A stretch of DNA of 64,000 nt from contig NZ_OZ243113.1 in the NCBI RefSeq assembly GCF_965212575.1, positions 1,115,662 to 1,179,661 of the forward strand, written 5' to 3'. The notes beneath the pieces were generated by a model. That model made no database searches, was not told the DNA's origin, and saw nothing but the letters and a program-made list of their open reading frames with translations. Position numbers and translations under genes: made by a program. The DNA comes from Flagellimonas sp. (GTDB lineage Bacteria > Bacteroidota > Bacteroidia > Flavobacteriales > Flavobacteriaceae). Each line of letters opens with the position of its first letter. The first letter of the stretch is position 1. Of this stretch, positions 11,120 to 64,000 are shown piece after piece.

Positions 11120-12265
11120 ATGGACATCTTTGCAAAAAAATGTCAAAACGTGTCTAAAAAAGCATTAATAACTGGTGTTACTGGCCAAGATGGGGCCTAT
11201 TTAAGTGAGTTTTTATTAAAAAAAGGGTATGAGGTACATGGATTGAAAAGACGGTCTTCGCTTTTCAATACCGATCGTATTGACCATTTGTACCAGGATC
11301 CCCATGTAGAAAACCGCAACTTCATTTTGCATTATGGGGACATGACGGATAGTACCAACCTGATTCGTTTAATTCAGGAAATCCAGCCTGACGAAATCTA
11401 TAATTTGGCGGCAATGAGCCATGTCCATGTGAGTTTTGAAACTCCTGAATATACCGGTAATGCGGATGGTTTGGGAACCTTGAGGATTCTTGACGCGGTA
11501 AGATTATTGGGCTTGGGCGATAAAACCAGAATATATCAAGCATCAACATCCGAATTATATGGAAAGGTGCAAGAAGTGCCCCAAAGTGAGGCCACCCCAT
11601 TTTACCCGAGGAGTCCTTACGCAGTGGCAAAGATGTATGCCTATTGGATAACGGTAAATTACCGTGAGGCCTATAATATGTATGCATGCAATGGTATTCT
11701 TTTTAACCATGAATCGCCAATCCGTGGAGAAACTTTTGTGACCCGGAAGATAACAAGGGCAACGGCGAGAATAGCAATGGGGTTGCAGGACAAATTTTTT
11801 CTTGGAAATCTTGATGCCCAAAGAGATTGGGGCCATGCCAAGGATTATGTGAGAATGATGTGGATGATACTTCAAGCGGACCAACCCGAAGATTGGGTCA
11901 TCGCCACCGGAAAAACTACAACTGTCCGTGACTTTGTTAGGATGAGTTTCAATGAGGTGGGAATAGAACTGGAATTCAAAGGAGAGGGGGTGAATGAAAA
12001 AGCTTTTGTTAAAGCCTGTGGCAATCCAGAGTTTCAATTGGAGATTGGGAAAGAAGTACTATCCGTGGACCCAAAGTACTTCAGACCGACAGAGGTCGAT
12101 TTGTTAATAGGAGACCCGACCAAGGCCAAGACCAAATTGGGGTGGATCCCTGAATATGACCTACCGGCTTTGGTCAAGGATATGATGCAAAGCGATGTCA
12201 AGCTAATGCAAAAAGAGCAATACCTTAAGGACGGTGGTTATCGCATTCTAAACTATTTTGAATAG
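11120..12265 (+). CDS. gmd: GDP-mannose 4,6-dehydratase
   Basis: [48 protein letters not shown] and [17 protein letters not shown] are collinear with E. coli Gmd. The GTG at 11150 would give MSKKALITG, which fits the canonical N-terminus better than the ATG at 11120. Confidence 0.93.
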
Positions 12266-12268
12266 AAA

Positions 12269-13354: not shown

Positions 13355-13398
13355 TCAAGTAATATCTGAAACTTTCTATTAACCATTAACCATAGAGT

Positions 13399-14724: not shown

Positions 14725-14844
14725 CACTTTAGAAAACAAAAATTAAATAAACAATTTTTGGATAAAAACGGAGTTTTTTAATTATCATCGATTTTTATAA
14801 CCAGGTCATTTTAAAAAGGATGGCCATCATACAAATTAAACCAA

Positions 14845-49043: not shown

Positions 49044-50819
49044 ATGGGAATTCAAACTTGGACGTTTATCATCGTCGGAATCACTTTTGCATTATATATT
49101 GGAATTGCCATTTGGTCCAGGGCCAGTTCAACAAAGGAATTTTATGTAGCCGGTGGAGGGGTTTCCCCTTTGGCGAACGGATTGGCCACCGCAGCAGATT
49201 GGATGTCGGCCGCTTCTTTTTTGGGAATGGCCGGAATCATTGCCTTTTCTGGCTATGACGGCTCGGTATATTTGATGGGTTGGACAGGGGGTTATGTGCT
49301 TTTGGCCTTATTGCTGGCACCTTACTTGAGAAAATTCGGAAAATTTACGGTTCCCGATTTTATCGGTGACCGCTACTATAGCAATGTCGCCCGGACGGTA
49401 GCTGTTATCGCTGCACTTTTTGTCTCCTTCACCTATGTTGCTGGACAAATGCGTGGCGTTGGCGTGGTTTTTTCACGCTTTTTGGATGTTGAGGTAAATA
49501 CCGGCGTTTATATTGGAATGGCGGTGGTATTGTTCTACGCCTTTTTAGGTGGAATGAAAGGAATCACCTATACCCAGGTGGCCCAATATTGTGTGTTGAT
49601 TTTTGCCTTTATGGTCCCGGCCATATTTATCTCGATTATGGCTACCGGAAATCCAATTCCGCAATTAGGTTTTGGTTCTGCAGGTGAAGATGGAATCTAT
49701 TTATTGGATAAATTGGATGGTTTGATGACGGATTTGGGATTTACGGCCTATACCGATGGTACGAAGTCGACCACCGATGTCTTTTTTATTACGGCAGCCT
49801 TGATGTTGGGAACCGCAGGCTTGCCCCATGTGATCATCCGTTTCTTTACCGTACCGAAGGTACGGGATGCCCGTAAATCAGCAGGGTATGCCTTATTGTT
49901 CATTGCCATTCTCTATACCACTGCACCGGCCATTGCTGTTTTTGCCCGTACAAATTTGATGGAAACGGTTGAGGATACACCCTACAAAGAAATTCCGCCT
50001 TGGTTTACCAAATGGGAAGATACCGGACTTATAGCCTGGACCGATAAAAACGGAGATGGAAAGATTCAATATTTACCCGGTTCCGCAATTGATGGCAAAA
50101 AACCTTTGTTTAGCGGTCAAAGAGGAGACTACGGGGAACGAAAAATATCAAACTTAAGTGTTTCTGCCAATGAGCTTTATGTAGATAGGGACATTACGGT
50201 TCTTGCAAACCCTGAAATTGCCGGATTACCCAATTGGATCATTGCTTTGGTGGCGGCTGGCGGATTGGCAGCAGCCCTATCCACAGCAGCCGGATTACTT
50301 TTGGTAATCTCAACTTCAATTTCACATGATTTGATCAAGAAACAATTTGCTCCGGACATTTCGGATAAAAAAGAGCTATTGATTGCCCGCCTTGCTGCCG
50401 TTCTTGCGGTTACGGTTGCTGGTTACTTTGGAATTCATCCGCCCGGTTTTGTGGCATCTGTGGTAGCCTTGGCCTTTGGCCTTGCTGCGTCTTCTTTTTT
50501 CCCTGCAATTGTTATGGGAATTTTTAGCAAGCGGATGAATAGGGAAGGAGCCATCACAGGCATGATCGCTGGTCTTGGAATTACAACCTATTATATTGCC
50601 CGATTCAAATTGGGATGGATTGGAGACCCGGAAACCAGCACATCCAATGATTGGTGGTTTGGTATTTCGCCAGAGGGCTTTGGAACTGTTGGTATGTTGG
50701 TCAATTTTGCTATTTCGTTGGCGGTATCACGATTTTATGCTCCTCCTCCTGAACATGTGCAAGAAATTGTGGAGAATATCCGAATTCCAAGTGGGGCAGG
50801 AGATGCCATAGATCATTAA
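49044..50819 (+). CDS. Sodium:solute symporter family permease (acetate/monocarboxylate-type, DUF4212-partnered)
   Basis: 591 aa, polytopic. SSS blocks are present (GLATAADWMSAASFLGMAG, GGMKGITYTQVAQ). Confidence 0.85.
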   Translation: MGIQTWTFIIVGITFALYIGIAIWSRASSTKEFYVAGGGVSPLANGLATAADWMSAASFLGMAGIIAFSGYDGSVYLMGWTGGYVLLALLLAPYLRKFGKFTVPDFIGDRYYSNVARTVAVIAALFVSFTYVAGQMRGVGVVFSRFLDVEVNTGVYIGMAVVLFYAFLGGMKGITYTQVAQYCVLIFAFMVPAIFISIMATGNPIPQLGFGSAGEDGIYLLDKLDGLMTDLGFTAYTDGTKSTTDVFFITAALMLGTAGLPHVIIRFFTVPKVRDARKSAGYALLFIAILYTTAPAIAVFARTNLMETVEDTPYKEIPPWFTKWEDTGLIAWTDKNGDGKIQYLPGSAIDGKKPLFSGQRGDYGERKISNLSVSANELYVDRDITVLANPEIAGLPNWIIALVAAGGLAAALSTAAGLLLVISTSISHDLIKKQFAPDISDKKELLIARLAAVLAVTVAGYFGIHPPGFVASVVALAFGLAASSFFPAIVMGIFSKRMNREGAITGMIAGLGITTYYIARFKLGWIGDPETSTSNDWWFGISPEGFGTVGMLVNFAISLAVSRFYAPPPEHVQEIVENIRIPSGAGDAIDH

Positions 50820-50821
50820 TG

Positions 50822-50835
50822 CCAGGTTAACCTGG
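50822..50835. terminator. Short palindromic hairpin between convergent genes
   Basis: CCAGGTTAACCTGG gives a 5-bp stem with a 4-nt loop and no clear U tract. Weak. Confidence 0.25.
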
Positions 50836-50844
50836 GGAAGAAAA

Positions 50845-51987
50845 TCATATTCTGATGTCAAAATCCAATCGAATACGTTGACCATTTTCAAGGGTTGTTC
50901 CCGTAGGCACCAATTGTTCCACCCAGTAATATTTCATTTTTATGCTCATGTTCTTACCGATCATATGGCCCAGAACAAATTCCAAACCCTGTAAATTGGT
51001 CAATCTCCCATCTGGTGAATCAAAAGAGGAGTAATCCCATCGGGCCCAATCGTTTTGAGCAAGAAAGTCAACTGCAGCATACTTTTCCAAGTGGGTATAG
51101 GTGACTTTGGCCACCCAATCGCTTTTCTTTTTTAGATTTCCATAGCCAATGGCCATTGACCAAGCTGTTTTCTCATCTTTGAAATCTATTGGGATGGAAG
51201 TGTTGCTGTCATAATTTTCAAGATTTTGATAATAATCCAATTCAATAGTTACAGGATATGATTCAAAAGGTTTGATCGAAGTGCCCAGATGTATTATGGA
51301 ATAGTCAAAAAGGAAGGTAGCAGCCCCATCCGGAATGTCTTGGATATTTTTGAACAAATAAATGCTTGGGTATAGTTGCCATCTTTTATTCCATAGGTTT
51401 GCTACAGCCTGAAATCCTTGAAAATAACTGTCCTGGTCAAACGAAGACCCTCGGGCATTGATAACAAAATGCCCTCCACTGATAGAAATTTCATCAATGG
51501 GACCGGAGGCTGTTGAAAACGCTTTCTTAAGAAAGACCCCTTCAGGATACACATTATCGCTCCAAAAAAGTTCGTTTTTTTTTTCGTACGGAAATGTATT
51601 CTTACCGAACCATGCCGTAAATCCATCTTTTTCGGCTTTAAAATAGGCCTTTTCAAGGGCGATTGGCAGAGTTCCGAATTCGTTAAAACCATCTCCCAAG
51701 GTCAGTTGGGGATCTTGTTGTTTTTTGGGATCCCCGGTACGGATTCTTGCACCCACACTTGCCCAGTCGTTATGTTGATAAGTGGCTCCCGCTCTTAACC
51801 TATACCGTAACCGGGAACGATCGTCCCTAAATGTACCATCGGATTTTCTGGAGTTCCAATCCTGCTCAATGCGAAATCTAAAATCCCCCTCCAATTTAAT
51901 TTTTTTGACCTTTTCTTGGGCCGTTACTATGATGGATAAAAGAAATAGGGTGTAAACGAGATTGGTCAGTTTTGATTTCAAAATCAA
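50845..51987 (-). CDS. Putative outer-membrane porin (beta-barrel)
   Basis: 380 aa. Signal peptide ending TAQE, with alternating hydrophobic beta-strand patterns throughout. The function call is contextual. Confidence 0.55.
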   Translation of the reverse strand: MILKSKLTNLVYTLFLLSIIVTAQEKVKKIKLEGDFRFRIEQDWNSRKSDGTFRDDRSRLRYRLRAGATYQHNDWASVGARIRTGDPKKQQDPQLTLGDGFNEFGTLPIALEKAYFKAEKDGFTAWFGKNTFPYEKKNELFWSDNVYPEGVFLKKAFSTASGPIDEISISGGHFVINARGSSFDQDSYFQGFQAVANLWNKRWQLYPSIYLFKNIQDIPDGAATFLFDYSIIHLGTSIKPFESYPVTIELDYYQNLENYDSNTSIPIDFKDEKTAWSMAIGYGNLKKKSDWVAKVTYTHLEKYAAVDFLAQNDWARWDYSSFDSPDGRLTNLQGLEFVLGHMIGKNMSIKMKYYWVEQLVPTGTTLENGQRIRLDFDIRI

Positions 51988-52235
51988 ATGGATTGATATT
52001 TATGTGATAAGGATGAAAAAATGGACTTGAATCCAATACCGATGCTAAGGTAGCCCATGTTGGGCACAACCCAAAAATAAGATTCTAAATAATTTTACAT
52101 TTTGATTGGTTATTCATTAGAATTTTACGGCTTAAAATATGGGATGCGCAATTTTGTTGAGTTTAGTTTGAACAGGGCTCGGGCAGTATCACTTTTTTGC
52201 TATTTTTAGTTCTTCGTAAAATTTCAACCGATACC

Positions 52236-54143
52236 ATGAGCAATTATCACATCAAGCACCTGGAAGAGTATTTTCAGGTATACCGAAAATCAGTTAGAAA
52301 TCCAGAAGCATTTTGGGAAGAAATCGCAGAGGAACACTTTGTTTGGCGTAAACGATGGGACAATGTTCTGGAATGGGATTTTTTGAAACCTGAAGTAAAA
52401 TGGTTTGATGGAGCAAAGCTTAATATTACCGAAAACTGCATCGACAGGCATTTGCACATTCGTGGAGACAAGACGGCTATTCTTTTTGAACCCAATAGTC
52501 CAGACGAAGAAGCGGAGCATATCACTTACAAACAACTTCATGAACGTGTTTGCAAGTTTGCCAATGTGCTAAAGGATAATGGAATCCAAAAAGGGGATAG
52601 GGTAGTTATCTATTTGCCCATGATTCCAGAATTGGCGGTTTCCGTACTGGCCTGTGCCCGAATTGGTGCTATTCATTCGGTGGTTTTTGCAGGATTTTCA
52701 TCCACCGCATTGGCCACTAGAATCAATGATTGCGAAGCCAAAATGGTGCTGACCTCCGATGGTTCTTACAGAGGTGGAAAAACAATAGATTTAAAAGGAA
52801 TTGTAGACGATGCACTAAAACAATGTCCGGGAGTGGAAACGGTTTTGGTAGCCAAGCGTACCAATGCGGAAATTCATATGGAAACCGGAAGAGACCATTG
52901 GCTACAACCTTTGTTGGACAATGCATATGCCGATTGTCCTTCAGAAATTATGGATGCAGAGGATCCCTTGTTTATTTTGTACACTTCCGGTTCTACAGGT
53001 CGCCCAAAAGGGATGATGCACAGTACTGCCGGATATATGGTGTATACCGCCTTTACATTTAAAAATGTGTTCCAATACCGTGAAGATGATGTGTATTGGT
53101 GTACTGCCGACATTGGTTGGATCACCGGTCATTCCTATATTGTTTATGGGCCATTGGCCAATGGTGCCACCACGGTGATGTTCGAGGGAGTTCCTTCATA
53201 TCCTGATTTTGGGCGGTTCTGGGAGATTGTTGAAAAACATAAAGTGACACAATTTTATACTGCCCCTACAGCAATTAGAGCCTTGGCAAAGGAGAACCTT
53301 GATTTTGTGACCAAGCACGACCTTTCGAGCCTAAAGGTCTTAGGAACCGTTGGAGAGCCCATAAACGAAGAGGCATGGCATTGGTACAATGATCATGTTG
53401 GTGAGAAGAAATGTCCCATTGTGGACACATGGTGGCAAACCGAAACAGGAGGAATATTGATTTCCCCAGTACCTTTTTCAACCCCAACCAAGCCTACCTA
53501 TGCCACTTTGCCCATGCCAGGGGTACAACCTGCGCTAATGGATGAGAATGGCAAGGAGATTCACGGAAACCAGGTGGATGGACGACTTTGCATCAAATTC
53601 CCATGGCCTTCTATTGCCAGAACCATTTGGGGAGACCATAAAAGATATAAGGACACCTATTTTTCAGCTTATGAAGGAAAATATTTTACTGGAGATGGTG
53701 CGTTGAGGGATGAAGTTGGATACTATCGAATCACAGGTAGGGTAGATGATGTGATCATAGTTTCAGGTCACAATTTAGGTACGGCACCCATTGAAGATGC
53801 CATTAACGAACATCCAGCGGTGGCAGAATCAGCCATTGTTGGTTTCCCGCACGACATTAAAGGAAATGCGCTTTATGGTTATGTGATATTGAAAGAAACA
53901 GGTGAGTCCCGAGATCGCGACAATTTGAAAAAGGAAATCAATCAAATGATAACAGACCATATTGGACCAATCGCCAAGTTGGACAAGATTCAATTTGTTC
54001 CAGGACTTCCCAAAACCCGTAGTGGAAAAATCATGCGACGTATCCTTAGGAAAATTGCATCAAAAGACACGGCTAACCTCGGCGATATATCAACTTTGTT
54101 GAATCCAGAGGTGGTCGAGAAAATTATGGAAGAAGCCTTATAA
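52236..54143 (+). CDS. acs: Acetyl-CoA synthetase
   Basis: I chose the ATG at 52236 (MSNYHIKHLEEYF); the track ORF starts at 52197. Has YTSGSTGRPKG, WWQTETGG and PKTRSGKIMRR. Confidence 0.93.
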   Translation: MSNYHIKHLEEYFQVYRKSVRNPEAFWEEIAEEHFVWRKRWDNVLEWDFLKPEVKWFDGAKLNITENCIDRHLHIRGDKTAILFEPNSPDEEAEHITYKQLHERVCKFANVLKDNGIQKGDRVVIYLPMIPELAVSVLACARIGAIHSVVFAGFSSTALATRINDCEAKMVLTSDGSYRGGKTIDLKGIVDDALKQCPGVETVLVAKRTNAEIHMETGRDHWLQPLLDNAYADCPSEIMDAEDPLFILYTSGSTGRPKGMMHSTAGYMVYTAFTFKNVFQYREDDVYWCTADIGWITGHSYIVYGPLANGATTVMFEGVPSYPDFGRFWEIVEKHKVTQFYTAPTAIRALAKENLDFVTKHDLSSLKVLGTVGEPINEEAWHWYNDHVGEKKCPIVDTWWQTETGGILISPVPFSTPTKPTYATLPMPGVQPALMDENGKEIHGNQVDGRLCIKFPWPSIARTIWGDHKRYKDTYFSAYEGKYFTGDGALRDEVGYYRITGRVDDVIIVSGHNLGTAPIEDAINEHPAVAESAIVGFPHDIKGNALYGYVILKETGESRDRDNLKKEINQMITDHIGPIAKLDKIQFVPGLPKTRSGKIMRRILRKIASKDTANLGDISTLLNPEVVEKIMEEAL

Positions 54144-54322: not shown

Positions 54323-55798
54323 TCAACTTTTATAACTTCTAACAAGCTGGGCCATCATACGTAGTTTTTTTGTCATCAAAATCTCATTCACCGAACAATA
54401 TCCCATGACAAGGCCGTTCCCTTCCTTTGGGTTCTTATAATAGTTCCCCAAAGGGTGTGCAACTATCCCATTTTGTCCCAAGTATTCTGATAAATCCTTA
54501 TCATTAATATTCCTGTTCAATTTTCCAATAAGATGCAGTCCCTGGGATTTTTCTTCAAGGGAGATATGGGCAGCAAGATGCTTTTCAAAATAGCCAACAA
54601 ATATTTCCCTCCTTCGAGCGGTGACCTCCATTATGTTCCTCAAATGGTCGTTCAGATAGTCCCTTTCCATAAAGGCATTCAAAGTTTTTTGCAGGTACGG
54701 GGAAATAAATCTATTGGAATGCTGGTGAAGAGCCAGAACCGAATCCAACATAAAGTTGGGCACTATGGCATAGCCAACTCGGAGCGACGGATGTAACAAT
54801 TTATTAAATGTTCCCAAATACACAACCCTATCATCATTGTTAAGGCTATAAATGGCAGGTAATGGATTTTCCCAATTGCTAAACTCATGGTCATAGTCGT
54901 CCTCGATGATTATGGACTGTTTGGTTTGGACCCAATCGTTTAATTTTATCCTACGGTCCATGCTCATTCTAACACCGGTGGGGTACTGGTTTGATGGGGT
55001 AGTATAGACCAATTTGGGCTGTCGGTTTCTGAAAGATTCCAAATCGATGCCCTCTTTGTCAACAGGCGCATAAAAAATCTTGGACTGGAGAGCTTCCAGA
55101 ATTTTTCGGGCATTGGGATACGTTGGGTTCTCGGTCACCACTTGGTCTCCTTTATCGACCAATACATTAAAAATCAGGTACAGGGAGTGCAGGGAGCCAG
55201 TGGTAATGACAATTTGATGGGGATCACATTCAATATTCCTATAAAACTTAAGGTAGTTGGCGATGTTCTTCCGCAATGACTTTATCCCACTGGACCCATA
55301 ATAAGTGAGCTCAGAGCTGGTCACCTTTTTCCAATATTCGTTGGAGAGTGTCTGCCATTTTACCAACGGAAATAAATCCAATGGTGGCAGACCAGGTCTA
55401 AAAGGAATACTTTTGCGTTCTTCTCTTAGGTTAATTCTTTTGCTGAACTTTAACCCTAACTTGGACAAATGGGGTTTTCGCTTCTCTTTTGTTGATTTTA
55501 GCTCCGATACAACGTCCAGCGCCATCATTTTTTTGGGTGCGATGAAAACCCCAGCGCCACCTTTGGACCAAGCAAATCCATCCCCAATCAATTTGTCATA
55601 CGCTTTGATAACCGTACTCCTGGATACACCCAAGTCTTTGGCCATCAACCTGGTTGGAGGTAAGGCTTCGTTTTCATTCAGCGTACCAAAAACAATGGAA
55701 TCTCTTAGCGCGTGATAGAGATTCTGATAAATATTGGTATAGGGTAGATTTGTATCGAATCCATGTTTCCTCAATATGCTTTTAATGTTGTATCGCAA
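54323..55798 (-). CDS. MocR/GabR/PdxR-type regulator (GntR HTH fused to fold-type I aminotransferase-like domain)
   Basis: 491 aa. N-terminal wHTH (LPPTRLMAKDLGVSRSTVIKAYDKLIGDG) plus a roughly 350-aa aminotransferase-like domain. TTG start assumed. Confidence 0.85.
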   Translation of the reverse strand: MRYNIKSILRKHGFDTNLPYTNIYQNLYHALRDSIVFGTLNENEALPPTRLMAKDLGVSRSTVIKAYDKLIGDGFAWSKGGAGVFIAPKKMMALDVVSELKSTKEKRKPHLSKLGLKFSKRINLREERKSIPFRPGLPPLDLFPLVKWQTLSNEYWKKVTSSELTYYGSSGIKSLRKNIANYLKFYRNIECDPHQIVITTGSLHSLYLIFNVLVDKGDQVVTENPTYPNARKILEALQSKIFYAPVDKEGIDLESFRNRQPKLVYTTPSNQYPTGVRMSMDRRIKLNDWVQTKQSIIIEDDYDHEFSNWENPLPAIYSLNNDDRVVYLGTFNKLLHPSLRVGYAIVPNFMLDSVLALHQHSNRFISPYLQKTLNAFMERDYLNDHLRNIMEVTARRREIFVGYFEKHLAAHISLEEKSQGLHLIGKLNRNINDKDLSEYLGQNGIVAHPLGNYYKNPKEGNGLVMGYCSVNEILMTKKLRMMAQLVRSYKS

Positions 55799-55801
55799 AA
55801 T

Positions 55802-55855
55802 TGGTATGTTTAATTCTAAAAAATTGGTAGGTGTAATTTAAGATAACTTTGGTAT
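55802..55855. promoter_or_regulatory. Three direct TGGTA(T/G) repeats in the MocR-divergent intergenic region; candidate MocR operator
   Basis: TGGTAT at 55802-55807, TGGTAG at 55825-55830 and TGGTAT at 55850-55855, spaced 23 and 25 nt apart. The first two sit inside a 17/20-identical direct repeat, AAAATTGGTA(T/G)GT(T/G)TAATT. TGGTAT is the complement of ATACCA. Confidence 0.45.
55824..55851 (+). promoter_or_regulatory. Candidate Bacteroidetes promoter for the M14-SusC-SusD operon
   Basis: TTG (55824-55826), a 17-nt spacer, then TAACTTTG (55844-55851). The latter is a perfect TAnnTTTG -7 element 38 nt upstream of the start at 55890. Confidence 0.4.
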
Positions 55856-55889
55856 AATTTCAAGTAGCTAACGACAAACCAAAAGAACA

Positions 55890-57131
55890 TTGACTCGGAT
55901 ACCCATAAAATATGTTTGGGTTATATGCCTATTATTCTTAATAATCGCATGCGCGGGTGTGCCCAAGGTCCGTTTTGAATCCCCTGTGGATACAAGAACC
56001 AAGACCATAGAGCAACAGCTAAAGACCACCTACTCATTGAGTGAAATTGGTGTGCACGCCAGTAATAAGTTTGATGGTGCCCGGCTGAACGGTTTTAAAA
56101 TCTTGAATGACTCCACCGCCAAGGTTATCATTAAACCTGAAAATACTCCCATTAACAATAGTCCCTATTACGCATTTTCCATTTGGTCCGATGATCAGCG
56201 TCCTTTTTATCTGACCTTTGATTACCCTGAAGGGTTCAAACATAGGTATACACCAAAATTAAAGCGGTCAGGCAGGTGGAGTATCATCGATTCCACCAAA
56301 ATATTCAAAAAGGATACCATAGTGACCATAAAGGTAGAATTGGACAGGCAACCACTTACTATTGCTGCCCAAGAGATCCAATCTTCACGGGATGTTTCCA
56401 ATTGGTATACGCCCTTAATGGGCAACTATTCCTATGCGCATAAAAATAGTATTGGGCAGAGTACATTGGGAAGGGATTTGGTAGTATTGGATATCAATAA
56501 GCCATCTAGCCACAAAAAAGAACTCGTGGTACTCATGACCAGGCAACATCCACCTGAGGTCACAGGTTATTATGCATTTCAATCCTTTTTGGAGACCATA
56601 TTGGATAATTCTGAATTGGCAAATACCTTTTTGGAACGCTATCGCGTATTGGCCTTTCCACTAATGAATCCCGACGGAGTGGATCTTGGACATTGGAGGC
56701 ACAATGCGGGAGGTGTTGATACCAACAGGGATTGGTCCAAGTACAGACAACCAGAAGTGAGGCATGCAGCGGATTATATCCATGATATCATGAAAAGGGA
56801 AGAAATGGAGTTAGTGTTGGGGCTTGATTTTCATTCCACCTGGTACGATGTTTTTTACACCAATACGAAACGCGAAGAAACTGCAATGCCGGAATTTGTG
56901 GACGAGTGGTTTTCGGCACTTGAAAACAACATTGAAGACTATAAGGTCAATGAGCAGGCAGGGAACAGCAAAAAGCCAGTGTCCAAAGGTTGGTTTTTAT
57001 ATGGTCACAATGCAGTGGGTATCACTTATGAAATTGGAGATGCCACTCCCAAGGACGACATAGAAAAATTTGGAACTATATCTTCCAAAGAAATGATGAA
57101 ACTATTAATCAATAAACAAATGAGCAACTAA
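55890..57131 (+). CDS. M14-family zinc carboxypeptidase, lipoprotein
   Basis: 413 aa. Lipobox LIIAC. Has QHPPE (HxxE zinc motif), NPDGV, DTNRDW and LDFHS. TTG start. Confidence 0.8.
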   Translation: MTRIPIKYVWVICLLFLIIACAGVPKVRFESPVDTRTKTIEQQLKTTYSLSEIGVHASNKFDGARLNGFKILNDSTAKVIIKPENTPINNSPYYAFSIWSDDQRPFYLTFDYPEGFKHRYTPKLKRSGRWSIIDSTKIFKKDTIVTIKVELDRQPLTIAAQEIQSSRDVSNWYTPLMGNYSYAHKNSIGQSTLGRDLVVLDINKPSSHKKELVVLMTRQHPPEVTGYYAFQSFLETILDNSELANTFLERYRVLAFPLMNPDGVDLGHWRHNAGGVDTNRDWSKYRQPEVRHAADYIHDIMKREEMELVLGLDFHSTWYDVFYTNTKREETAMPEFVDEWFSALENNIEDYKVNEQAGNSKKPVSKGWFLYGHNAVGITYEIGDATPKDDIEKFGTISSKEMMKLLINKQMSN

Positions 57132-57146
57132 CTTAAATCTAGCTAA

Positions 57147-60100
57147 ATGAGAAAAACCCTCTTACTTTTAATTTTTTTGACTTTGGGACTGTCAGCAGCC
57201 AGTGCCCAACAAACCGTCACCGGAACCGTAAGTGACGGAAACGTACCCTTGCCCGGGGCTTCGGTCGTGGTAAAGGGAACCACCAATGGCACAACAACCG
57301 ATTTTGATGGGAACTACTCCATTTCTGTGGAAGTTGGCCAAATCCTTGTTTTCACTTATGTGGGATATGCAACACAGGAACAAACGGTGACAGACCAAAC
57401 AACCATTCATGTGGTTTTGACCGAAGATGCCCAAGCTCTTGATGAAGTTGTGGTTACCGCTTTGGGATTTGTGGAAAAACGAGATAAAATGGCGTCCACT
57501 TATTCCAAAATTGATGCGGATAAACTAGTGCAACCTGTTGAAAACAAAATTATTGATGGAATTGCTGGTAAAGCGGCCGGTGTTAGCATCAATGCCACGT
57601 CAGGTGACCCTGGTGCCGGTTCCAACATTCAGATTCGGGGAACCAGTTCACTTAGTGGATCCAGCCAACCTTTGATTGTTGTGGATGGTATTCCACTGAA
57701 CAACGACAATATAGCGGGATCTGGGGATAGCGATCAGTCGGCTGGTGTGTCACAACAGTCAAGGCTCAATGACATCAATCCAGAGGATATTGAATCGTTC
57801 CAAGTGTTCAAAGGAGCCTCTGCAGGTGCCTTGTACGGTTCACGGGCGTTGAATGGGGTCATTGTAATAACCACCAAAAAAGGTAAGGCCGGTAAATTCA
57901 ATATTAACTACTCCACCGGTGTTTCCATTGATCAAATTTCAATTAAGCATCCTTTGCAAACCACATTTGGACAAGGAAACGGAGGTAATTTTGTTGCCGA
58001 TGCACAAAGATCCTGGGGAGATAGGATTTCGGAACGGGCCGGGGGCGCTGATGAGGTGAATACATCCGGTCAATTCTTCGAGTCCTTGGTCTCCGACAAC
58101 ATTATTTATCCCATTACCCAAAAGAACTCCAGGGAGATATTCGTGGACAGGAACTTTGACCAGGTTTTTCAATCGGGGATAACTTATGATAATAAGGTTT
58201 CCGTGAGCAGCGGTAATGAAAAAGGCACCTATTACATAAGTGCGGCCCATGTAAATCAGGATGGTATTATTAAAGGAAGTTATTACAAGAAAACCAATTT
58301 TACCATGAATCTGACCCAAAACCTAACGGATAGGCTACGCGCCAATTTTAAGGCCAACTATGTGCATACCGGATCCAATAGAACCCAACAAGGTTCAAAT
58401 ACCGCAGGTTTATATCTAGGACTTTTGCGTACCGCACCGGATTTTGATCAGTCGGATTACATTGGAAATCACCATAGTAGTTCTGGTTCAATTACCCCAA
58501 ACAGACACCGGGGTTACCGAAGGTACCTTGGAAGCAGTGACAACGTTATATACAATAACCCACTGTGGACGGTCAAGGAACAAAAAAGTACGGCTAACGT
58601 AAATCGATTGATAGGCACAGGTGAAGTGTCCTACCAATGGAATGATAACATTAGCACCATAGTACGGGGAGGTGTGGATTTTTACGTGGACAGCAGGGTA
58701 TATTTCTTCCCTTATTATACAGCTGGTGCAGATCGACGATTTGGGCTATTAAATGACGAAACCATCAACAACGAGGAATATAATGGTGATTTATTGACTA
58801 ATTTCAATTATGAATTGACCGAAAAATTGAATACCAATGTGGTTGTCGGTTTTGGTATCAATGATAGAAGGCGAAAACGAATCTTTACCGAAGCGGATAA
58901 TTTTATTGCCAATTTCAGAAGTCCTTTGGATGCTACGGAGCTTTCAGCTAGAGAAAATATTGGCTCCGAGACAACAAGAACCAATAGGAGGAACATTCGT
59001 TTTTATGGAACTGCCAATTTTGATTATGCCGATCAGTTGATCTTGCAACTGGGAGGGGCCTTTGAAAAACATTCTGTATTGCCAGCAGACAATAATGGTT
59101 TCTTTTATCCAAGTGCCGAATTGGGGTGGACCTTCACCAATGCACTAAAAGATACAGGACCCTTGTCATTTGGTAAAGTAAGGTTGGCCTACGGTCAAGT
59201 GGCCAATGTGCCCATCGCTCACAGGGAGCAAACCGTATTCGAAGTGGGAAGTTTTTCTTCCTTTTCGGATGAGATTGCACTTGAGAATTTCGGAGGTGGA
59301 TTCCAATTTGATGAACGTCTTGGGAATTCAAATCTAAAACCCGAGATCAAAACAGAATACGAGGTAGGTCTAGATCTGAGGTTCCTAAGAAATAGGTTGG
59401 GGATTTCCACCACCTATTACACCAACAAAACTGAGGATGTTCTGCTGGATTTGGCTTTGGTCCCATCCCTTGGTTTTGATGAAATATATGCCAACGGCGC
59501 CACCATAGAAAACGATGGGCTCGAAATTGAGTTCAGATATGACTTCTTGAGAAAACAAGATTGGAGAGGTTCCATTGCCCTAAATTATAGTACCAATGAA
59601 AATATAGTTAGGGGTGTAAATGGTGAAGGGGAGTTTATCCAGGAATTTTCTGAGGGCTCCTCCATCCAATCCGTGGCCATTGATGGCGAACCCCTCGGGG
59701 TTCTATATACCCAGGGAGCCCTTAGAAATGCGGATGGAAGTTTAGCATTGGATGCCAATGGCTTTCCTCAAGTGGACACAAGTGGTAACTTGATTGTAGG
59801 TGATCCCAATCCGGATTGGAGGGGTGGTCTGCAGTTTGACCTTTCCTATAAAAACCTTTCTTTGGCGGCATCCTTTGATACCAGTCAAGGTAACGATCTA
59901 GCACAACGAACACGCTTTATCCTTGCTTTCTTTGGAACCCATGCTGATGTGGGTAAGACCATCACTCTGGATGAGCAATTGGTGAATTATGACGGCGATG
60001 TTTTCCCTGCTGGTTCTGTTGTGAGAGGCAATATTGAAAATTTTGGCGGCGGAAATGTACTTCTTGATGAGGATTACTATACTTCCTTATATGGATTTGG

Positions 60101-60380
60101 TGATGGAAAATTAAATGAATTTGCTGTGGAAGATGGGAGTTGGACACGTCTTAGGGAACTATCGCTGGCCTATACCTTAAATTCCGAGAAATTTAAGAAA
60201 GCTACGGGCTTAAGTTCAGTACAGTTTACGGCTTCCGGTCGTAACCTGATCATTTGGTCCGATGTGGTCGGAATTGATCCTGACATTAACCAGTTTGGAG
60301 TAGGAAGAGCACGTGGTTTGGACTACTTCTCCAATCCTGGATCGAGAACATATGCTTTTGGAATCAATTTTAATTTTTAA
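57147..60380 (+). CDS. SusC/RagA-family TonB-dependent outer-membrane transporter
   Basis: 1077 aa. Signal peptide, a CarbopepD_reg-like N-domain (VTGTVSDGNVPLPGASVVVKGT..GTTTDFDGNYSI), a plug, then a large barrel ending in F. Confidence 0.92.
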   Translation: MRKTLLLLIFLTLGLSAASAQQTVTGTVSDGNVPLPGASVVVKGTTNGTTTDFDGNYSISVEVGQILVFTYVGYATQEQTVTDQTTIHVVLTEDAQALDEVVVTALGFVEKRDKMASTYSKIDADKLVQPVENKIIDGIAGKAAGVSINATSGDPGAGSNIQIRGTSSLSGSSQPLIVVDGIPLNNDNIAGSGDSDQSAGVSQQSRLNDINPEDIESFQVFKGASAGALYGSRALNGVIVITTKKGKAGKFNINYSTGVSIDQISIKHPLQTTFGQGNGGNFVADAQRSWGDRISERAGGADEVNTSGQFFESLVSDNIIYPITQKNSREIFVDRNFDQVFQSGITYDNKVSVSSGNEKGTYYISAAHVNQDGIIKGSYYKKTNFTMNLTQNLTDRLRANFKANYVHTGSNRTQQGSNTAGLYLGLLRTAPDFDQSDYIGNHHSSSGSITPNRHRGYRRYLGSSDNVIYNNPLWTVKEQKSTANVNRLIGTGEVSYQWNDNISTIVRGGVDFYVDSRVYFFPYYTAGADRRFGLLNDETINNEEYNGDLLTNFNYELTEKLNTNVVVGFGINDRRRKRIFTEADNFIANFRSPLDATELSARENIGSETTRTNRRNIRFYGTANFDYADQLILQLGGAFEKHSVLPADNNGFFYPSAELGWTFTNALKDTGPLSFGKVRLAYGQVANVPIAHREQTVFEVGSFSSFSDEIALENFGGGFQFDERLGNSNLKPEIKTEYEVGLDLRFLRNRLGISTTYYTNKTEDVLLDLALVPSLGFDEIYANGATIENDGLEIEFRYDFLRKQDWRGSIALNYSTNENIVRGVNGEGEFIQEFSEGSSIQSVAIDGEPLGVLYTQGALRNADGSLALDANGFPQVDTSGNLIVGDPNPDWRGGLQFDLSYKNLSLAASFDTSQGNDLAQRTRFILAFFGTHADVGKTITLDEQLVNYDGDVFPAGSVVRGNIENFGGGNVLLDEDYYTSLYGFGDGKLNEFAVEDGSWTRLRELSLAYTLNSEKFKKATGLSSVQFTASGRNLIIWSDVVGIDPDINQFGVGRARGLDYFSNPGSRTYAFGINFNF

Positions 60381-61814
60381 ATGAAGGAAATTATGAAATC
60401 TAGATACAAAATAATTTTATCATTGATTTTTCTAACATCGGCAACGGCATGTGACGATTACCTAGATGTAAATGAAAACCCAAATCAATTGGTGGAAGTT
60501 CCTTCCGGAGATCTAATGCTTACCGGAACATTATTGGCCAATGCCCAGATACAACAGGGACAACTGGCAAGAACAAGCATGTACTATACAGGAGGTTTAA
60601 TTGGACTACAATTGGTACAACAAACCCTGTATAATTATGACTATACGCCCGGCGACTCCAATGCCGTTTGGGGACATTTGTACAATGGTATTTTGGTCCA
60701 GAATAAAGAAATTCGCCGGCTCTCGCCAGATGTAGGGCGTTTGCAAGGGATTATTGATGTAAATGAGGCCTTGGCCGTAGGTACCGCAGCATCCCTCTTT
60801 GGTGATATTCCTTATTCCACTGCTACTCCGGATAATCCTGGCGTAGACTCTGAGGATCCTACTCTGGACGGCCAAGCTGATGTTTATGCCGCCCTTCAAA
60901 CCTTGCTGGACAATGCCATACCAAAATTGCAGAATGGTTCCACAACCAGCATCACAAATAGCCAGGATAATTATTTTGGAGGGGATGCCGATAGCTGGAT
61001 TGCGGCAGCCTACACGCTAAAGGCACGCTATTATTTGCAAACAAAACAATACGCGCAGGCTTTGGCCAATGTTGCAAATGGGATCAACGCTGCCTCTGGG
61101 ACCATGTATTACAATCCAATAGGCGATGTGCCCGGGAACAGTAACATTCTTTTCAACTTTGTCAACAGTAGTAGGGCAGGTGATATGACGGGGGATGGAG
61201 CCTTCTACAGGGATTTGATTGATCCCGCCAATGTGAATGGCAGGAACAATGCCAAGACCGACGAGACAGCACGGAGAAACTATTCCTATATCAGCGGCGA
61301 TGGTGACCAAGTAGACGGAATAGATGGTCCAACCACTAAAATGAAGCTGGTGAGTTATGAGGAGAATATTTTGATATGGGCTGAGTGCTTGATCAGGGCT
61401 AACAATGATGTTCAGGGTGCCATAGACAAACTGAACGAGTTGCGGGCTTACTTGAACACAGGAGCAGCCTTTAACCTGATCAATGGAGATGAGACCTTCC
61501 TTTATGATGCCTATGTACTGGCCGATTTTGAAGCCGGGGGCATGGAAAACTCGGATAATATAGCCACAGATAGGGCAGTACTGCGTGAAATAATTGAAGA
61601 GCGGTACGTAACTGGCTTCAGTACCTATATGCCATTCAATGATGCAAGGAGACTTCGTACCGAAACAGATGTACTGGTACCTTTCCCATTGAACAATGGC
61701 ACAACAACAGTAAATCCACAGCGATTTTTATATGCACAAGATGAAATAAACAACAATAGTAACTTGCCAAATCCAATTCCGGATTTGTTCACACCGACAC
61801 CGGTTAACCAATAA
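60381..61814 (+). CDS. SusD/RagB-family lipoprotein
   Basis: 477 aa. Lipobox TSATAC, followed by DDYLDVNENPN. Lies immediately after SusC. Confidence 0.88.
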   Translation: MKEIMKSRYKIILSLIFLTSATACDDYLDVNENPNQLVEVPSGDLMLTGTLLANAQIQQGQLARTSMYYTGGLIGLQLVQQTLYNYDYTPGDSNAVWGHLYNGILVQNKEIRRLSPDVGRLQGIIDVNEALAVGTAASLFGDIPYSTATPDNPGVDSEDPTLDGQADVYAALQTLLDNAIPKLQNGSTTSITNSQDNYFGGDADSWIAAAYTLKARYYLQTKQYAQALANVANGINAASGTMYYNPIGDVPGNSNILFNFVNSSRAGDMTGDGAFYRDLIDPANVNGRNNAKTDETARRNYSYISGDGDQVDGIDGPTTKMKLVSYEENILIWAECLIRANNDVQGAIDKLNELRAYLNTGAAFNLINGDETFLYDAYVLADFEAGGMENSDNIATDRAVLREIIEERYVTGFSTYMPFNDARRLRTETDVLVPFPLNNGTTTVNPQRFLYAQDEINNNSNLPNPIPDLFTPTPVNQ

Positions 61815-61861
61815 CATGGAACAACCACCAACCAATCAGTGTTTGAGTTAGCTCTGTTCCC

Positions 61862-61894
61862 GAAGGCTGCCTATTTGATGGATAGGCAGCCTTC
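61862..61894 (+). terminator. Strong 13-bp stem-loop after susD (terminator or attenuator / processing site)
   Basis: GAAGGCTGCCTAT (61862-74), loop TTGATGG, then ATAGGCAGCCTTC (61882-94). The stem is perfect, and no U tract follows. Confidence 0.45.
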
Positions 61895-61933
61895 CTTGGG
61901 AAAAGACCATTTGTCAATGTAAAAGGTATTCCT

Positions 61934-63478
61934 ATGCTTAAAATCCCCTACTTTTTGGGTTTGTTTTTACTGCTTTCTGCCTGCGCCAAAGACAAGTCCA
62001 AAGTAGACATCTTAATTGTAAATGGCAGAGTATATGACGGCATTTCAGAAGTACCCACAACTTTGGACGTTGCCATTAAAAATGGTAAGATTATTTCCGT
62101 CGGAACGTTGGATTCCTTGGAACTCAAACCGGAAAGGGTCATCAATGCTTCCGGTAAAATAGTTTGCCCAGGATTTATTGACCCCCATACCCATGCGGAT
62201 AGGGATTTGATAAACCCGGAAACCTCCCATAATATGCCCTTTTTAATGCAAGGTATTACTACCGTGGTGGTTGGTAACGATGGGGACAGTTTTCTTCCAT
62301 TAAAAAAACACGCCCAATTATATGATTCCATTGGTATTGGAACCAACGTGGTGCAGCTTGTTGGCCACGGTTCGGTACGCAGGCACATCATGGGGAAAAG
62401 TGACCGAAAACCGACTCCTCTGGAATTACAGGATATGAAAGCATTGGTTCAAGAGGAAATGGACCAGGGAGCCTTTGGAATGTCTACGGGCCTGTTTTAT
62501 GCACCTGGCAGTTACTCCAATACAGATGAAGTAGTAGCATTGGCAAAGGTCGTTGCCATGAACGATGGCATCTATGATACCCATCTTAGGGATGAGAGTT
62601 CGTATACCGTAGGTCTAGTAAAAGCGGTGCAGGAAGCTTTGGAAATTGGAGAGAAAGCCCAAATCCCAATTCACATTTCCCATATCAAATGCTTGGGCAA
62701 GGATGTTTGGGGGAAAAGCCAGGAAATTATAGATCTCGTTACAGAGGCTAAAAATAAAGGAGTCCATGTAACTGCAAATCAGTACCCTTATGATGCTTCG
62801 GCCACCAGCCTGAAGGCAGCTGTGGTACCTCGCTGGGCGGAAAGTGGCGGTCTCGACTCCCTTTTTATCCGACTGGAAAACCTTGACCTTAAGAAACGTA
62901 TTTTGGAAGAAACCGGCCATAATATTGAACGACGTGGCGGACCATCAAAATTACTGGTTGTTAAACTACCCGATACTTCCTTCGTTGGAAAGAACTTAAA
63001 GGAAATTTCAGATGTATTGCAGGTGACCCCCGAGCAAGCTGTCTTTGAACTATTGCAAATTGGCCATGCTAAGGTTGTTTCATTCAACATGACTGAAGAA
63101 GACATCCACAACTTTATGAAACAAGATTGGGTGGTCACAGGTTCCGATGGAAATACTGGACACCCTAGAAAATATGCCAAATACGTGAAACAAGACAGTA
63201 TCATAACCCTTGCCGAGTTTATCAATGGCAGTACCTACAAAACAGCAGAAATTTTTAAAATACCCCTGCGAGGAGCCATAAAAGAGGGGTATTATGCGGA
63301 CATTATCATTTTTGATCCTGATAAATTTGCGGACGACGCTAAATATACAGACGCTTTTTTATATGCCAAGGGGCTTGAATATGGCATAATCAATGGCAGA
63401 ATATCGGTGGAAAAAGGCCAATTCACACAACAATTGAACGGAAGGGCGCTTCTAAAAAATAAGAGTTATAACCAATAA
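61934..63478 (+). CDS. N-acyl-D-amino-acid deacylase (D-aminoacylase) family amidohydrolase, lipoprotein
   Basis: 514 aa. Lipobox LLSAC. Has ILIVNGRVYDG, CPGFIDPHTHAD, IPIHISHIK and TGSDGNTGHPR, typical of D-aminoacylases. Confidence 0.75.
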   Translation: MLKIPYFLGLFLLLSACAKDKSKVDILIVNGRVYDGISEVPTTLDVAIKNGKIISVGTLDSLELKPERVINASGKIVCPGFIDPHTHADRDLINPETSHNMPFLMQGITTVVVGNDGDSFLPLKKHAQLYDSIGIGTNVVQLVGHGSVRRHIMGKSDRKPTPLELQDMKALVQEEMDQGAFGMSTGLFYAPGSYSNTDEVVALAKVVAMNDGIYDTHLRDESSYTVGLVKAVQEALEIGEKAQIPIHISHIKCLGKDVWGKSQEIIDLVTEAKNKGVHVTANQYPYDASATSLKAAVVPRWAESGGLDSLFIRLENLDLKKRILEETGHNIERRGGPSKLLVVKLPDTSFVGKNLKEISDVLQVTPEQAVFELLQIGHAKVVSFNMTEEDIHNFMKQDWVVTGSDGNTGHPRKYAKYVKQDSIITLAEFINGSTYKTAEIFKIPLRGAIKEGYYADIIIFDPDKFADDAKYTDAFLYAKGLEYGIINGRISVEKGQFTQQLNGRALLKNKSYNQ

Positions 63479-63487
63479 AATAAGGTG

Positions 63488-64000
63488 ATGATCGGTTTAA
63501 GTCATAAAATGTCCAGGGTGAAACCATCCGCAACCTTGGCTATCAATGAGCTTTCCGTAAAACTGATAACGGAAGGAAAAGAGGTTTACCGTTTGGGCTT
63601 TGGACAATCCCCCTTTCCGGTACCGGATATCATTGTGGAGGCGCTGAAGAGGCACGCACACCAAAAGGACTATTTGCCTGTGCAAGGACTTTTGCCATTG
63701 CGCCAGGTTGTTGCACAGTTTTTCAACAGAACATATCATCTTCCGGTAGGTGCTGAAAATGTATTGGTAGGTCCGGGTTCCAAAGAGCTTATTTATAATT
63801 TCCAGGTAGCAGCTTCCTTTGACGAATTGTTGTTGCCATCTCCAAGTTGGGTCTCATATGAGCCCCAGGCCCTACTCAGCGGCCATAAAGCGATATGGTT
63901 GGAAACCCAAGAAGCAGATGGCTACAAATTGAAGGCCAAGACCTTGCTCGATCATTGTAGCAAGCACCCGGGAAAGAAGAGGGTCATCATTCTAAATTAC
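63488..64000 (+). CDS. Class I/II (aspartate-type) aminotransferase, N-terminal 171 codons; continues past the right edge
   Basis: Not in the track because there is no stop in the window. Hand translation from ATG 63488 gives MIGLSHKMSRVKPSATLAINELS...YRLGFGQSPFPVP...VLVGPGSKELIYN...LLPSPSWVSYEP, open to position 64000. Confidence 0.8.
   Translation, partial: MIGLSHKMSRVKPSATLAINELSVKLITEGKEVYRLGFGQSPFPVPDIIVEALKRHAHQKDYLPVQGLLPLRQVVAQFFNRTYHLPVGAENVLVGPGSKELIYNFQVAASFDELLLPSPSWVSYEPQALLSGHKAIWLETQEADGYKLKAKTLLDHCSKHPGKKRVIILNY

Follow-up and report, generated by a model that had tools for sequence, protein, structure and literature searches.

A MocR-linked SusC/SusD operon of Flagellimonas without carbohydrate-active enzymes, probably serving small peptides with D-amino acids and acidic residues

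Classical polysaccharide utilisation loci (PULs) of the Bacteroidota share a logic of capture at the cell surface, TonB-driven import, exo-degradation in the periplasm, an inner-membrane carrier and a local regulator, with a hairpin after susD. The same logic is recognisable in an operon that crosses the end of a window of 64,000 nucleotides (G000:C1:1115662-1179661) from the complete 3.84-Mb genome (G000) of Flagellimonas sp., a member of a marine genus of the Flavobacteriaceae. Whereas classical PULs contain carbohydrate-active enzymes (CAZymes) and a hybrid two-component system, an extracytoplasmic function sigma factor or a SusR regulator, this operon contains no glycoside hydrolases, lyases or esterases and is accompanied by a pyridoxal phosphate (PLP)-dependent MocR-type regulator. 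All enzyme families encoded here act at a free-carboxylate residue or on Glu/Asp derivatives, and one family is D-specific. Judging from gene content, it is fairly probable that the operon is a MocR-controlled SusCD system for small peptides containing D-amino acids and acidic, Glu-type residues, with cell-wall stem peptides and/or gamma-glutamyl (poly-gamma-glutamate) oligomers as the likeliest substrates.

Several described systems resemble parts of this locus. In Escherichia coli, murein peptides are recycled by MpaA, LdcA and YcjG/PepD through stepwise exo-cleavage of L-Ala-gamma-D-Glu-mDAP(-D-Ala) (mDAP, meso-diaminopimelate), which involves a zinc-dependent M14 enzyme together with D- and L-specific peptidases. 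A likeness to this pathway would explain why Flagellimonas needs D-specific as well as L-specific hydrolases, but the E. coli enzymes work in the cytoplasm and come from other families or subfamilies, whereas extracytoplasmic scavenging of foreign cell-wall debris via SusCD is proposed here. RagAB of Porphyromonas gingivalis is likewise a SusCD pair for peptides in a CAZyme-free locus (10.1101/755678). It imports protease-generated L-oligopeptides and has no dedicated hydrolase set, in contrast to the four exported exo-hydrolases of D- or acidic-residue families, the carrier, the transaminase and the MocR regulator encoded here. Degradation of gamma-polyglutamate (gamma-PGA) in Bacillus also relies on an exported, lid-loop-negative N-terminal nucleophile (Ntn) hydrolase of the GGT family, and the product would be D/L-glutamate (PMC8062742). 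The Flagellimonas enzyme differs in that the Arg for binding the alpha-carboxylate is missing and in its coupling to an M14D carboxypeptidase, a D-aminoacylase homologue and SusCD; the locus has no endo-hydrolase of the PgdS or PghP type.

The nearest precedent in the literature is a context note from 2012 on the gammaproteobacterium NOR5-3, in which genes for TonB-dependent transporters adjoin a D-aminoacylase gene, and from which the import of N-acyl-D-amino-acid derivatives from marine dissolved organic matter was predicted (Tang et al. 2012, PMC3400609). That prediction comes from gene context, as does the one made here, and concerns a single adjacency without SusD, a CCP-type M14 enzyme, a GGT-like protein, AstE or MocR. 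A literature search returned no paper with both SusD and D-aminoacylase, and the literature on peptidoglycan, D-glutamate and TonB gave no account of this locus type.

An original prediction from the window had listed the genes from a divergent MocR-type regulator to a class I aminotransferase, and an open reading frame (ORF) map and domain searches reproduce their order and coordinates (Table 1). It had also suspected that the locus continues beyond nucleotide 64,000. The next 10 kb past the window end were examined as L001 (window-equivalent position = L001 + 53338 = G000:C1 - 1115661), and the operon indeed continues there with the rest of an aspartate aminotransferase (AspAT)-like aminotransferase gene and genes for a GGT-family protein, an AstE/AspA-type protein and a DUF819 carrier. 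The intra-operon gaps are 15, 0, 119, 6, -19, 15 and -17 bp; by this spacing the eight genes form one tight operon of ~12.7 kb that runs uninterrupted past the window end. A scan for sigma-70-type promoters and terminators found sites no commoner than in shuffled sequence.

The claimed absence of CAZymes is borne out: neither the genes from MocR to DUF819 nor the flanks yielded a CAZyme domain, and none of the genes past the window end encodes a glycoside hydrolase, the outcome that the original prediction had named as its refutation. The locus therefore lies outside the strict definition of a PUL, which asks for at least one glycoside hydrolase, polysaccharide lyase or carbohydrate esterase beside SusCD. 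For comparison, 80 loci were gathered around M14 homologues and their neighbouring genes were mapped. No CAZymes were found in ~27 extra ORFs of related loci; around more distant M14 homologues, the 25 most frequent Pfam families in 113 operon-neighbour ORFs include none either.

Table 1. Features of the operon and its regulator, in window coordinates; positions beyond 64,000 are window-equivalents, with L001 coordinates in brackets where available.
Feature	Position	Strand	Basis or remark
MocR-type regulator	54323-55798	-	Pfam GntR winged helix-turn-helix (wHTH) and Aminotran_1_2; divergent from operon
Direct repeat, candidate MocR operator	55800-55830	none	abuts MocR start codon
Exported CCP-type M14D zinc carboxypeptidase (predicted), lipoprotein	55890-57131	+	lipobox LIIAC, profile, fold
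SusC/RagA TonB-dependent transporter	57147-60380	+	TIGR04056, TIGR04057, CarbopepD_reg_2, Plug and barrel domains
SusD-like surface lipoprotein	60381-61814	+	Pfam SusD-like_2, SusD-like; lipobox SATAC
Stem-loop between susD and amidohydrolase gene	~61857-61902	+	folding against shuffles
Exported D-aminoacylase-family amidohydrolase, lipoprotein	61934-63478	+	PDB matches, lipobox LLSAC
Cytoplasmic AspAT-like class I aminotransferase, 425 aa	63485-64762	+	cut by window end
Exported non-canonical GGT-family Ntn hydrolase, 543 aa	64744-66375 (11406-13037)		Pfam
Exported AstE/AspA-family zinc deacylase, 350 aa	66391-67443 (13053-14105)		PF24827
DUF819 membrane carrier, 381 aa, final operon gene	67427-68572 (14089-15234)		PF05684

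The transporter and its partner belong to the SusC/RagA and SusD pair. SusC scores 628.8 bits against TIGR04056 (cut-off 368.25) and 52.8 bits against the TIGR04057 signature (cut-off 46.2), and the adjacent SusD lipoprotein, the gene of which abuts the susC stop, matches Pfam SusD-like_2 (53.1 bits) and SusD-like (47.8 bits). An STN signalling domain was undetected in the domain search of SusC. Acidic residues follow the lipobox Cys of SusD, which is 94 % identical to its counterpart in F. flava and 90 % to that in F. hymeniacidonis. Its best PDB matches, such as 3fdh (6e-12), are SusD homologues with no ligand known; among the matches listed no chain is named RagB of P. gingivalis, and a 'RagB/SusD domain protein' (5j5u) appears at 1e-5. 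The hairpin proposed after susD is supported by the folding energy of the 125-nt intergenic stretch (-41.4 kcal/mol, z = -3.98, none of 200 shuffles as good). The stem-loop has no U-tract and is possibly an attenuator or a processing/stability element.

The M14 protein had been considered a possible gamma-D-Glu-mDAP peptidase. This MpaA/M14C identity is rejected, because the protein reaches only 18.2 bits against NF007897 (cut-off 157) and no MpaA-type structure occurs among the top 50 fold matches. The subfamily classification that had been proposed as a check leads to the CCP-type M14D enzymes, by sequence profile and by fold. A profile of 77 M14 sequences spans the N-terminal beta-sandwich and catalytic domains of 3l2n (residues 11-352), 4a37, 3k2k and 4b6z, with E values of 3e-25 to 7e-18 for these four bacterial CCP structures, and human CCP5 is also matched. 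When the AlphaFold2 model (pLDDT 95.1) was searched with Foldseek, the top 14 hits were bacterial CCPs and human CCP5 (E 8e-26 to 6e-21, TM 0.65-0.76), while other M14 enzymes followed at ~4e-13 or weaker, about eight orders of magnitude behind.

Invariant in the 77 sequences are H220, E223, H315, E381, R270, N279, R280 and the NPDG motif (260-263); the roles of the corresponding CCP motifs as zinc ligands, catalytic Glu, equivalents of Arg127/Asn144/Arg145 and NPDG have been described (PMC3940198). The protein thus combines the CCP-specific N-domain, the zinc ligands HxxE...H, the catalytic Glu, the carboxylate-binding Asn-Arg and NPDG, which places it in the M14D/CCP group. It departs from the cytosolic location of this group, since the protein and nearly all orthologues, unlike the crystallised CCPs, have a lipoprotein signal. 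Sequence and modelled fold together identify it as an exported carboxypeptidase that is CCP-type (M14D) by family. At position 366, 67 of the 77 sequences have K or R, and K366 aligns one position before SdCCP Asn321 and BcCCP Lys330 of the S1' site, so that its exact S1' assignment is approximate only. Lys330 of the Burkholderia CCP has been argued to signal an acidic substrate (PMC3940198). The lipoboxes of the M14 and amidohydrolase proteins agree with the earlier proposal that both hydrolases act outside the cytoplasm. Since the lipobox Cys of the M14 protein is not followed by acidic residues, exo-hydrolysis is probably periplasmic.

Searched as a single sequence, the amidohydrolase matches the D-aminoacylases 9g5m and 1m7j (AfDam), the N-acyl-D-glutamate deacylase 3gip (BbDam) and the GlcNAc1A deacetylase PpOngB (9kb1) with E values of 1e-58 to 1e-48, and a profile search places AfDam (6e-87) ahead of OngB (3e-70). 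It shares with AfDam, BbDam and PpOngB the fold, the catalytic Asp, the HxH motif, two His ligands and the carboxylate-binding Lys/Tyr/Arg, the roles of which are known from these enzymes (PMC12017989). The residues H85/H87 (HxH), H217, H250, K252, Y284 (YPY), D405 and R412 are conserved in close orthologues (at least 41 % identity). Homology, catalytic Asp, HxH, two His and Lys/Tyr/Arg thus confirm the membership in the D-aminoacylase family that had been predicted, whereas the metal site does not conform. In subtype V the beta-metal site is defined as Cys-His-His (PMC12017989); Cys96 of AfDam and Cys97 of PpOngB align with Asp116, in a GNDG instead of a GNCG motif. GNDG is found in this strain and in 10 of 11 close orthologues, and F. 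flava has GSDG, so the Asp is kept throughout the clade. Export as a lipoprotein and a 7-residue deletion in the G000 copy are further differences from the characterised enzymes, and D-aminoacylases have been studied mainly as biocatalysts (PMC12149444).

Both the single-sequence and the profile HMMER alignments break across residues 297-347, in insertion-domain loop 2, and the specificity residue (AfDam Leu298, BbDam Arg295, PpOngB Gln298) is therefore unaligned. A near-invariant Arg300, in a PRW motif, lies 1-3 residues from the extrapolated specificity position. An OngB-type identity, linked to oxidised chitin, is rejected: the position of Ser292 is occupied by Thr291, by offset from YPY, and no chitin-pathway genes were found at the locus.

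The deletion removes 21 bp in frame at ~63164-63167 (L001 ~9826), between CC(A/T)AGAAAATATG direct repeats. The junction reads HPRKY/AKYV where 12 of 12 orthologues read HPRKYG(S/T)FP(R/Y/K)K(Y/F)x, so seven residues are lost directly after the carboxylate-binding Arg motif. DNA nearly identical to 55800-64000 occurs in three algae-metagenome runs of one study (23-42 % of sampled words), with contigs aligned to 61900-63500 mostly at 95-99 % identity, and these matches hint at an alga-associated habitat. At the deletion point the alignments of these relatives break exactly, and one contig has the missing codons as a loose end; the environmental relatives carry the undeleted form.

With 363 bits in Pfam the GGT-like protein falls into the GGT superfamily, but against TIGR00066 it scores 320.9 bits, under the cut-off of 357.85. 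The Thr nucleophile is retained, as are Asn411, Asp433 and Ser462/463 (E. coli numbering), while Arg114 is changed to Thr, Gln430 to Tyr and Gly484 to Ser, and the lid loop is deleted. With this sub-cut-off score, an incomplete gamma-glutamyl binding set and no lid loop, assignment as a canonical GGT is rejected. The SusCD-linked orthologues (L021, L022, L065 and L073) all show this pattern, unlike the canonical GGTs encoded beside an M14 paralogue in other Flagellimonas genomes. E423Y, the equivalent of the change from Gln430 to Tyr, is one mutation that turns B. subtilis GGT into a glutaryl acylase (PMC8062742).

The next protein belongs to the AstE/AspA-type family (PF24827, 107 bits against 25) and has a signal peptide. 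It matches 3na6 and DoeB (6twl) at ~1e-15 with its metal and carboxylate motifs in register, which for 3na6 means HGxE, NRxFPG, the DxH His and the ExG Glu; against the DoeB equivalog it scores 71 bits, where 402 are required. The last protein matches DUF819 (PF05684, 103.6 bits), which is placed in the CPA/AT re-entrant fold group with the glutamate symporter GltS (PMC8396727), and a DUF819 protein of Neisseria is paired with an M15 peptidase (PMC12671195). This fold group and pairing, together with the interchange of SDF, DASS and DUF819 carriers between loci, suggest that DUF819 carries a Glu/Asp-type product. The aminotransferase (Pfam Aminotran_1_2, 171 bits) has aspartate aminotransferases as its best PDB matches (6f77, 5e-50), and no signal peptide was found in it.

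MocR regulators typically sense small amino compounds. The regulator of this locus scores 383 bits against the rhizopine MocR family of NCBIfam, under the cut-off, and passes the NCBIfam PdxR equivalog with 380.9 bits (cut-off 320). The PdxR assignment is doubtful because it is the SusCD operon, rather than pdxST, that is conserved beside the gene, and automatic annotation would probably mislabel the protein. The divergent arrangement recurs in L021, L024, L025, L026, L030, L015 and L018, and in L022 MocR is instead divergent from the end with the aminotransferase and GGT genes. The repeat consists of the copies ATTGGTAT(G) and ATTGGTAG(G), 23 bp apart from start to start. In all seven loci compared, which come from different genera, the intergenic DNA next to MocR contains a twofold ATTGGTAT repeat with equal spacing. 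The direct repeat is a candidate MocR operator with the architecture expected of MocR/GabR operators, and with its GntR wHTH and fold-type I aminotransferase domains the regulator is of the MocR/GabR type.

The locus is conserved well beyond this strain. In F. flava the complete locus is syntenic at 79-94 % identity. Twelve M14 orthologues with at least 49 % identity have sufficient flanking sequence; SusCD accompanies ten of them and the amidohydrolase nine. Gene order varies from MocR, aminotransferase, GGT, AstE, M14, SusC, SusD and amidohydrolase in a Flavobacteriales metagenome-assembled genome (MAG; L022) to M14, SusD, SusC, GGT, aminotransferase, DUF819 and M20 in a Cyclobacteriaceae MAG (L065) and aminotransferase, GGT, SusC, SusD and M14 in a Saprospiraceae MAG (L073). 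This recurrence in reshuffled order across families argues for a functional linkage. An SDF carrier follows the amidohydrolase in L029, L038 and L044, a DASS carrier lies between the GGT-like and AstE genes in L022, and a Polaribacter MAG has a minimal set of M14, amidohydrolase and SDF carrier.

In F. hymeniacidonis (L016/L034), SusC and SusD are 87-90 % identical to those of G000, while identity falls to 53 % for the adjacent M14 protein and the remaining enzymes differ. One of them is a class IV enzyme resembling D-amino-acid transaminases (259.7 bits); the others include an Ord-like diamino-acid dehydrogenase, a pair of M20 peptidases and a second homologue of the D-aminoacylases. This mosaic points to an independent exchange of transporter cassette and enzyme modules. 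A 386-aa lipoprotein that accompanies a second SusCD lineage has no match in Pfam or NCBIfam. Lipoproteins of the glutamate racemase family (~510 aa, with a lipobox) are encoded in Jejuia (L038, 14428-15963) and Reichenbachiella (L044, 14216-15730), between the amidohydrolase and the SDF (GltP/DctA-type) carrier, and align to MurI structures across both catalytic-Cys motifs. Exported members of this family are rare, with one in 301 sampled Bacteroidia genomes, there in an unrelated context, and an extracytoplasmic glutamate racemase would be unusual. An M23 peptidase is encoded in L044, and S12/beta-lactamase-fold proteins in L073 and five other M14 neighbourhoods. The D-transaminase-like gene, the racemase-family lipoproteins and the M23 and S12 peptidases lend comparative support to the originally proposed link to D-amino acids.

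Two further arrangements were seen around the same families. Other Flagellimonas (L020, 12301-18085; L098, 1772-7504) have a SusCD-free module with an amidohydrolase, a Na:alanine symporter, an M14 paralogue of 36-38 % identity and a canonical GGT; a search of G000 at E <= 1e-20 found no such M14 paralogue. Large surface proteins sorted by the type IX secretion system (T9SS) are encoded between the SusD and M14 genes in L044 (3387-8144), L059 (3976-8667) and L024 (5132-6496). They contain lamin-tail and Calx-beta domains, reach up to ~1580 aa and may be substrate binders.

For the Flagellimonas operon, the following pathway is proposed. SusD would capture the substrate, and SusC would import it with energy from TonB. 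The four exported hydrolases, probably located in the periplasm and possibly at the cell surface, would then take it apart from its ends, in an order that we infer from their families. The CCP-type M14D enzyme would strip a C-terminal L-residue bearing a carboxylate side chain, and the amidohydrolase would cut an acyl-D-amino-acid bond, either at a C-terminal D-residue or in an X-D-Glu dipeptide. The lid-less GGT-family Ntn hydrolase would take off a gamma-glutamyl-like N-terminal acyl unit, and the AstE/AspA-type enzyme would deacylate the remaining N-acyl acidic amino acid. Freed Glu/Asp-type amino acids would be moved through the inner membrane by DUF819 and channelled to central metabolism by the AspAT-like aminotransferase. 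MocR is predicted to bind the ATTGGTAT direct repeat and to respond to an amino compound via PLP.

The bias towards acidic residues is suggested by the deglutamylase branch of M14D, K/R366, the GGT-family, AstE/AspA and AspAT-like enzymes, the SDF/DASS carriers of relatives and the fold group of DUF819. Peptidoglycan stem peptides and gamma-glutamyl oligomers both fit this pattern, and the substrate could equally be either. Stem peptides are favoured by the M23, S12 and diamino-acid enzymes of relatives and by the abundance of cell-wall debris in seawater; gamma-glutamyl oligomers are favoured by downstream handling of glutamate only, by an M14 enzyme of the deglutamylase branch and by a GGT without lid. 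The related loci speak for the D-amino-acid part of the D-peptide or muropeptide substrate originally envisaged, but there is no sign of sugar-bearing muropeptides; neither an amidase nor a glycosidase was found. On this sequence-based evidence the locus appears to be a conserved peptide-type variant of the SusCD utilisation locus with well-constrained substrate candidates.

Several observations weigh against a D-amino-acid and Glu-type peptide substrate. Neither a muramoyl-L-alanine amidase nor an endo-PGA hydrolase is encoded at the locus to make the proposed substrates. Bacterial CCPs have no known substrate, and BcCCP cut a furylacryloyl-Glu test substrate at low levels only (PMC3940198). 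The acyl group taken by the GGT-like enzyme may not be standard gamma-Glu, because Arg114, which binds the alpha-carboxylate, is missing and the Tyr of glutaryl-acylase variants is present. The change from Cys to Asp departs from the Cys-His-His site, which leaves the chemistry and specificity of the amidohydrolase unproven, and with an Arg-less GGT pocket and an Asp-variant metal site the true chemistry may differ from both substrate candidates. The amidohydrolase of this strain may also be impaired by its 7-residue deletion. Among the relatives, the racemase, D-transaminase, M23 and S12 genes are each confined to one or a few loci, and a search of this genome found no exported racemase or close D-amino-acid transaminase, only a MurI-like match and a 26 %-identical class IV enzyme.

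The transaminase of the operon is itself of the L-specific class I type, which counts against D-residues and would suit general oligopeptide scavenging of the RagAB type, in which ordinary L-peptides from proteases encoded elsewhere are trimmed by exopeptidases and the D-aminoacylase-like and GGT-like enzymes handle odd bonds. RagAB sets a precedent for peptide import by a SusCD-type pair (10.1101/755678), and M14, M20, M28 and S12 are generic exopeptidase families. Such scavenging is nevertheless unlikely: no endopeptidase, broad aminopeptidase or dipeptidyl peptidase is encoded at the locus, its conserved core consists of a deglutamylase-branch M14D and a D-aminoacylase-family enzyme, and what relatives add is a D-transaminase, exported Glu racemases and carriers specific for Glu/Asp rather than permeases for peptides in general. 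The substrates could instead be small N-acylated amino acids or amide-linked amino compounds, such as N-acetyl-, N-succinyl- or N-glutaryl-D/L-Glu or -Asp or algal opine- or rhizopine-like metabolites, each hydrolase being the deacylase for its own acyl or stereo variant. All four hydrolase families include N-acyl-amino-acid deacylases (D-aminoacylases, AstE/AspA/DoeB, and M20 enzymes of the ArgE/DapE types in relatives), the Tyr of the GGT-like protein favours glutaryl-type acyl groups, small amino compounds are the usual effectors of MocR regulators, and the near-identical DNA comes from algae metagenomes. The marine transporter genes beside D-aminoacylase were likewise proposed to import N-acyl-D-amino-acid derivatives (PMC3400609). 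This explanation is given a rather small probability, as CCP-type M14 enzymes are peptide carboxypeptidases, the M23, S12 and large T9SS surface proteins of relatives suggest polymeric or peptide substrates, and a SusCD pair would be unusual for molecules of 150-250 Da.

A role in glycan use, either the uptake of oxidised chitin with an OngB-type GlcNAc1A deacetylase or the use of glycopeptides with CAZymes encoded elsewhere, is highly improbable. PpOngB (9kb1, 4e-53) is a PDB match nearly equal to the D-aminoacylases, and OngB enzymes evolved from D-aminoacylases (PMC12017989). The profile, however, favours AfDam over OngB, the Ser292 position is Thr as in D-aminoacylases, no chitinase, lytic polysaccharide monooxygenase, GH20, OngC-like gene or other CAZyme was found at the locus or in the related loci checked, and the remaining enzymes are all of amino-acid or peptide chemistry. 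There is a minor but appreciable chance that the locus is decaying in this strain, with the amidohydrolase deletion leaving the pathway non-functional whatever its ancestral substrate. The seven lost residues, next to the carboxylate-binding Arg motif, are present in every one of the 12 orthologues, and the environmental relatives at 95-99 % identity are undeleted. The deletion is in frame, however, all other genes are intact with conserved catalytic residues, and the PRKY motif is regenerated at the junction because the deleted stretch lay between PRKY repeats, which counts against decay.

The genes on either side belong to other systems. Past the operon, convergent genes on the minus strand (L001 15409-18575) encode a 2OG-Fe(II) oxygenase, a SET-domain protein, a 122-aa protein without family match and a RimB-RimK fusion of 474 aa, in which a retropepsin-like RimB is joined to the alpha-L-glutamate ligase RimK. 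The position of a poly-glutamate ligase beside a putative glutamyl-peptide degradation operon is probably a coincidence. Upstream, 49044-54143 encodes a VC_2705-type Na/solute symporter, a porin-like protein and an acetyl-CoA synthetase, an acetate-type module that is not related to the operon.

Peptidoglycan-derived D-amino acids make up a large, slowly cycling share of marine dissolved organic nitrogen. To our knowledge, bacterial uptake systems for peptidoglycan peptide debris are poorly known. The Flagellimonas operon makes it tentatively possible that marine Bacteroidota possess a dedicated outer-membrane import and periplasmic dismantling of foreign D-Glu peptides, be they stem peptides or gamma-polyglutamate. 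If true, this would offer a molecular handle on the marine remineralisation of dissolved organic nitrogen rich in D-amino acids. Bacterial CCP-type M14 enzymes (PMC3940198), D-aminoacylases and DUF819 lack an assigned physiological function, and the locus unites all three in one testable pathway. If it operates as proposed, this pathway would provide the first physiological roles for bacterial CCP-type M14D enzymes, for the exported Asp-variant D-aminoacylase clade and for the Arg-less GGT clade, and would identify DUF819 as a glutamate-type carrier. The SusCD systems of free-living marine Flavobacteriaceae may thus reach beyond glycans, possibly under the control of PLP-dependent MocR regulators.

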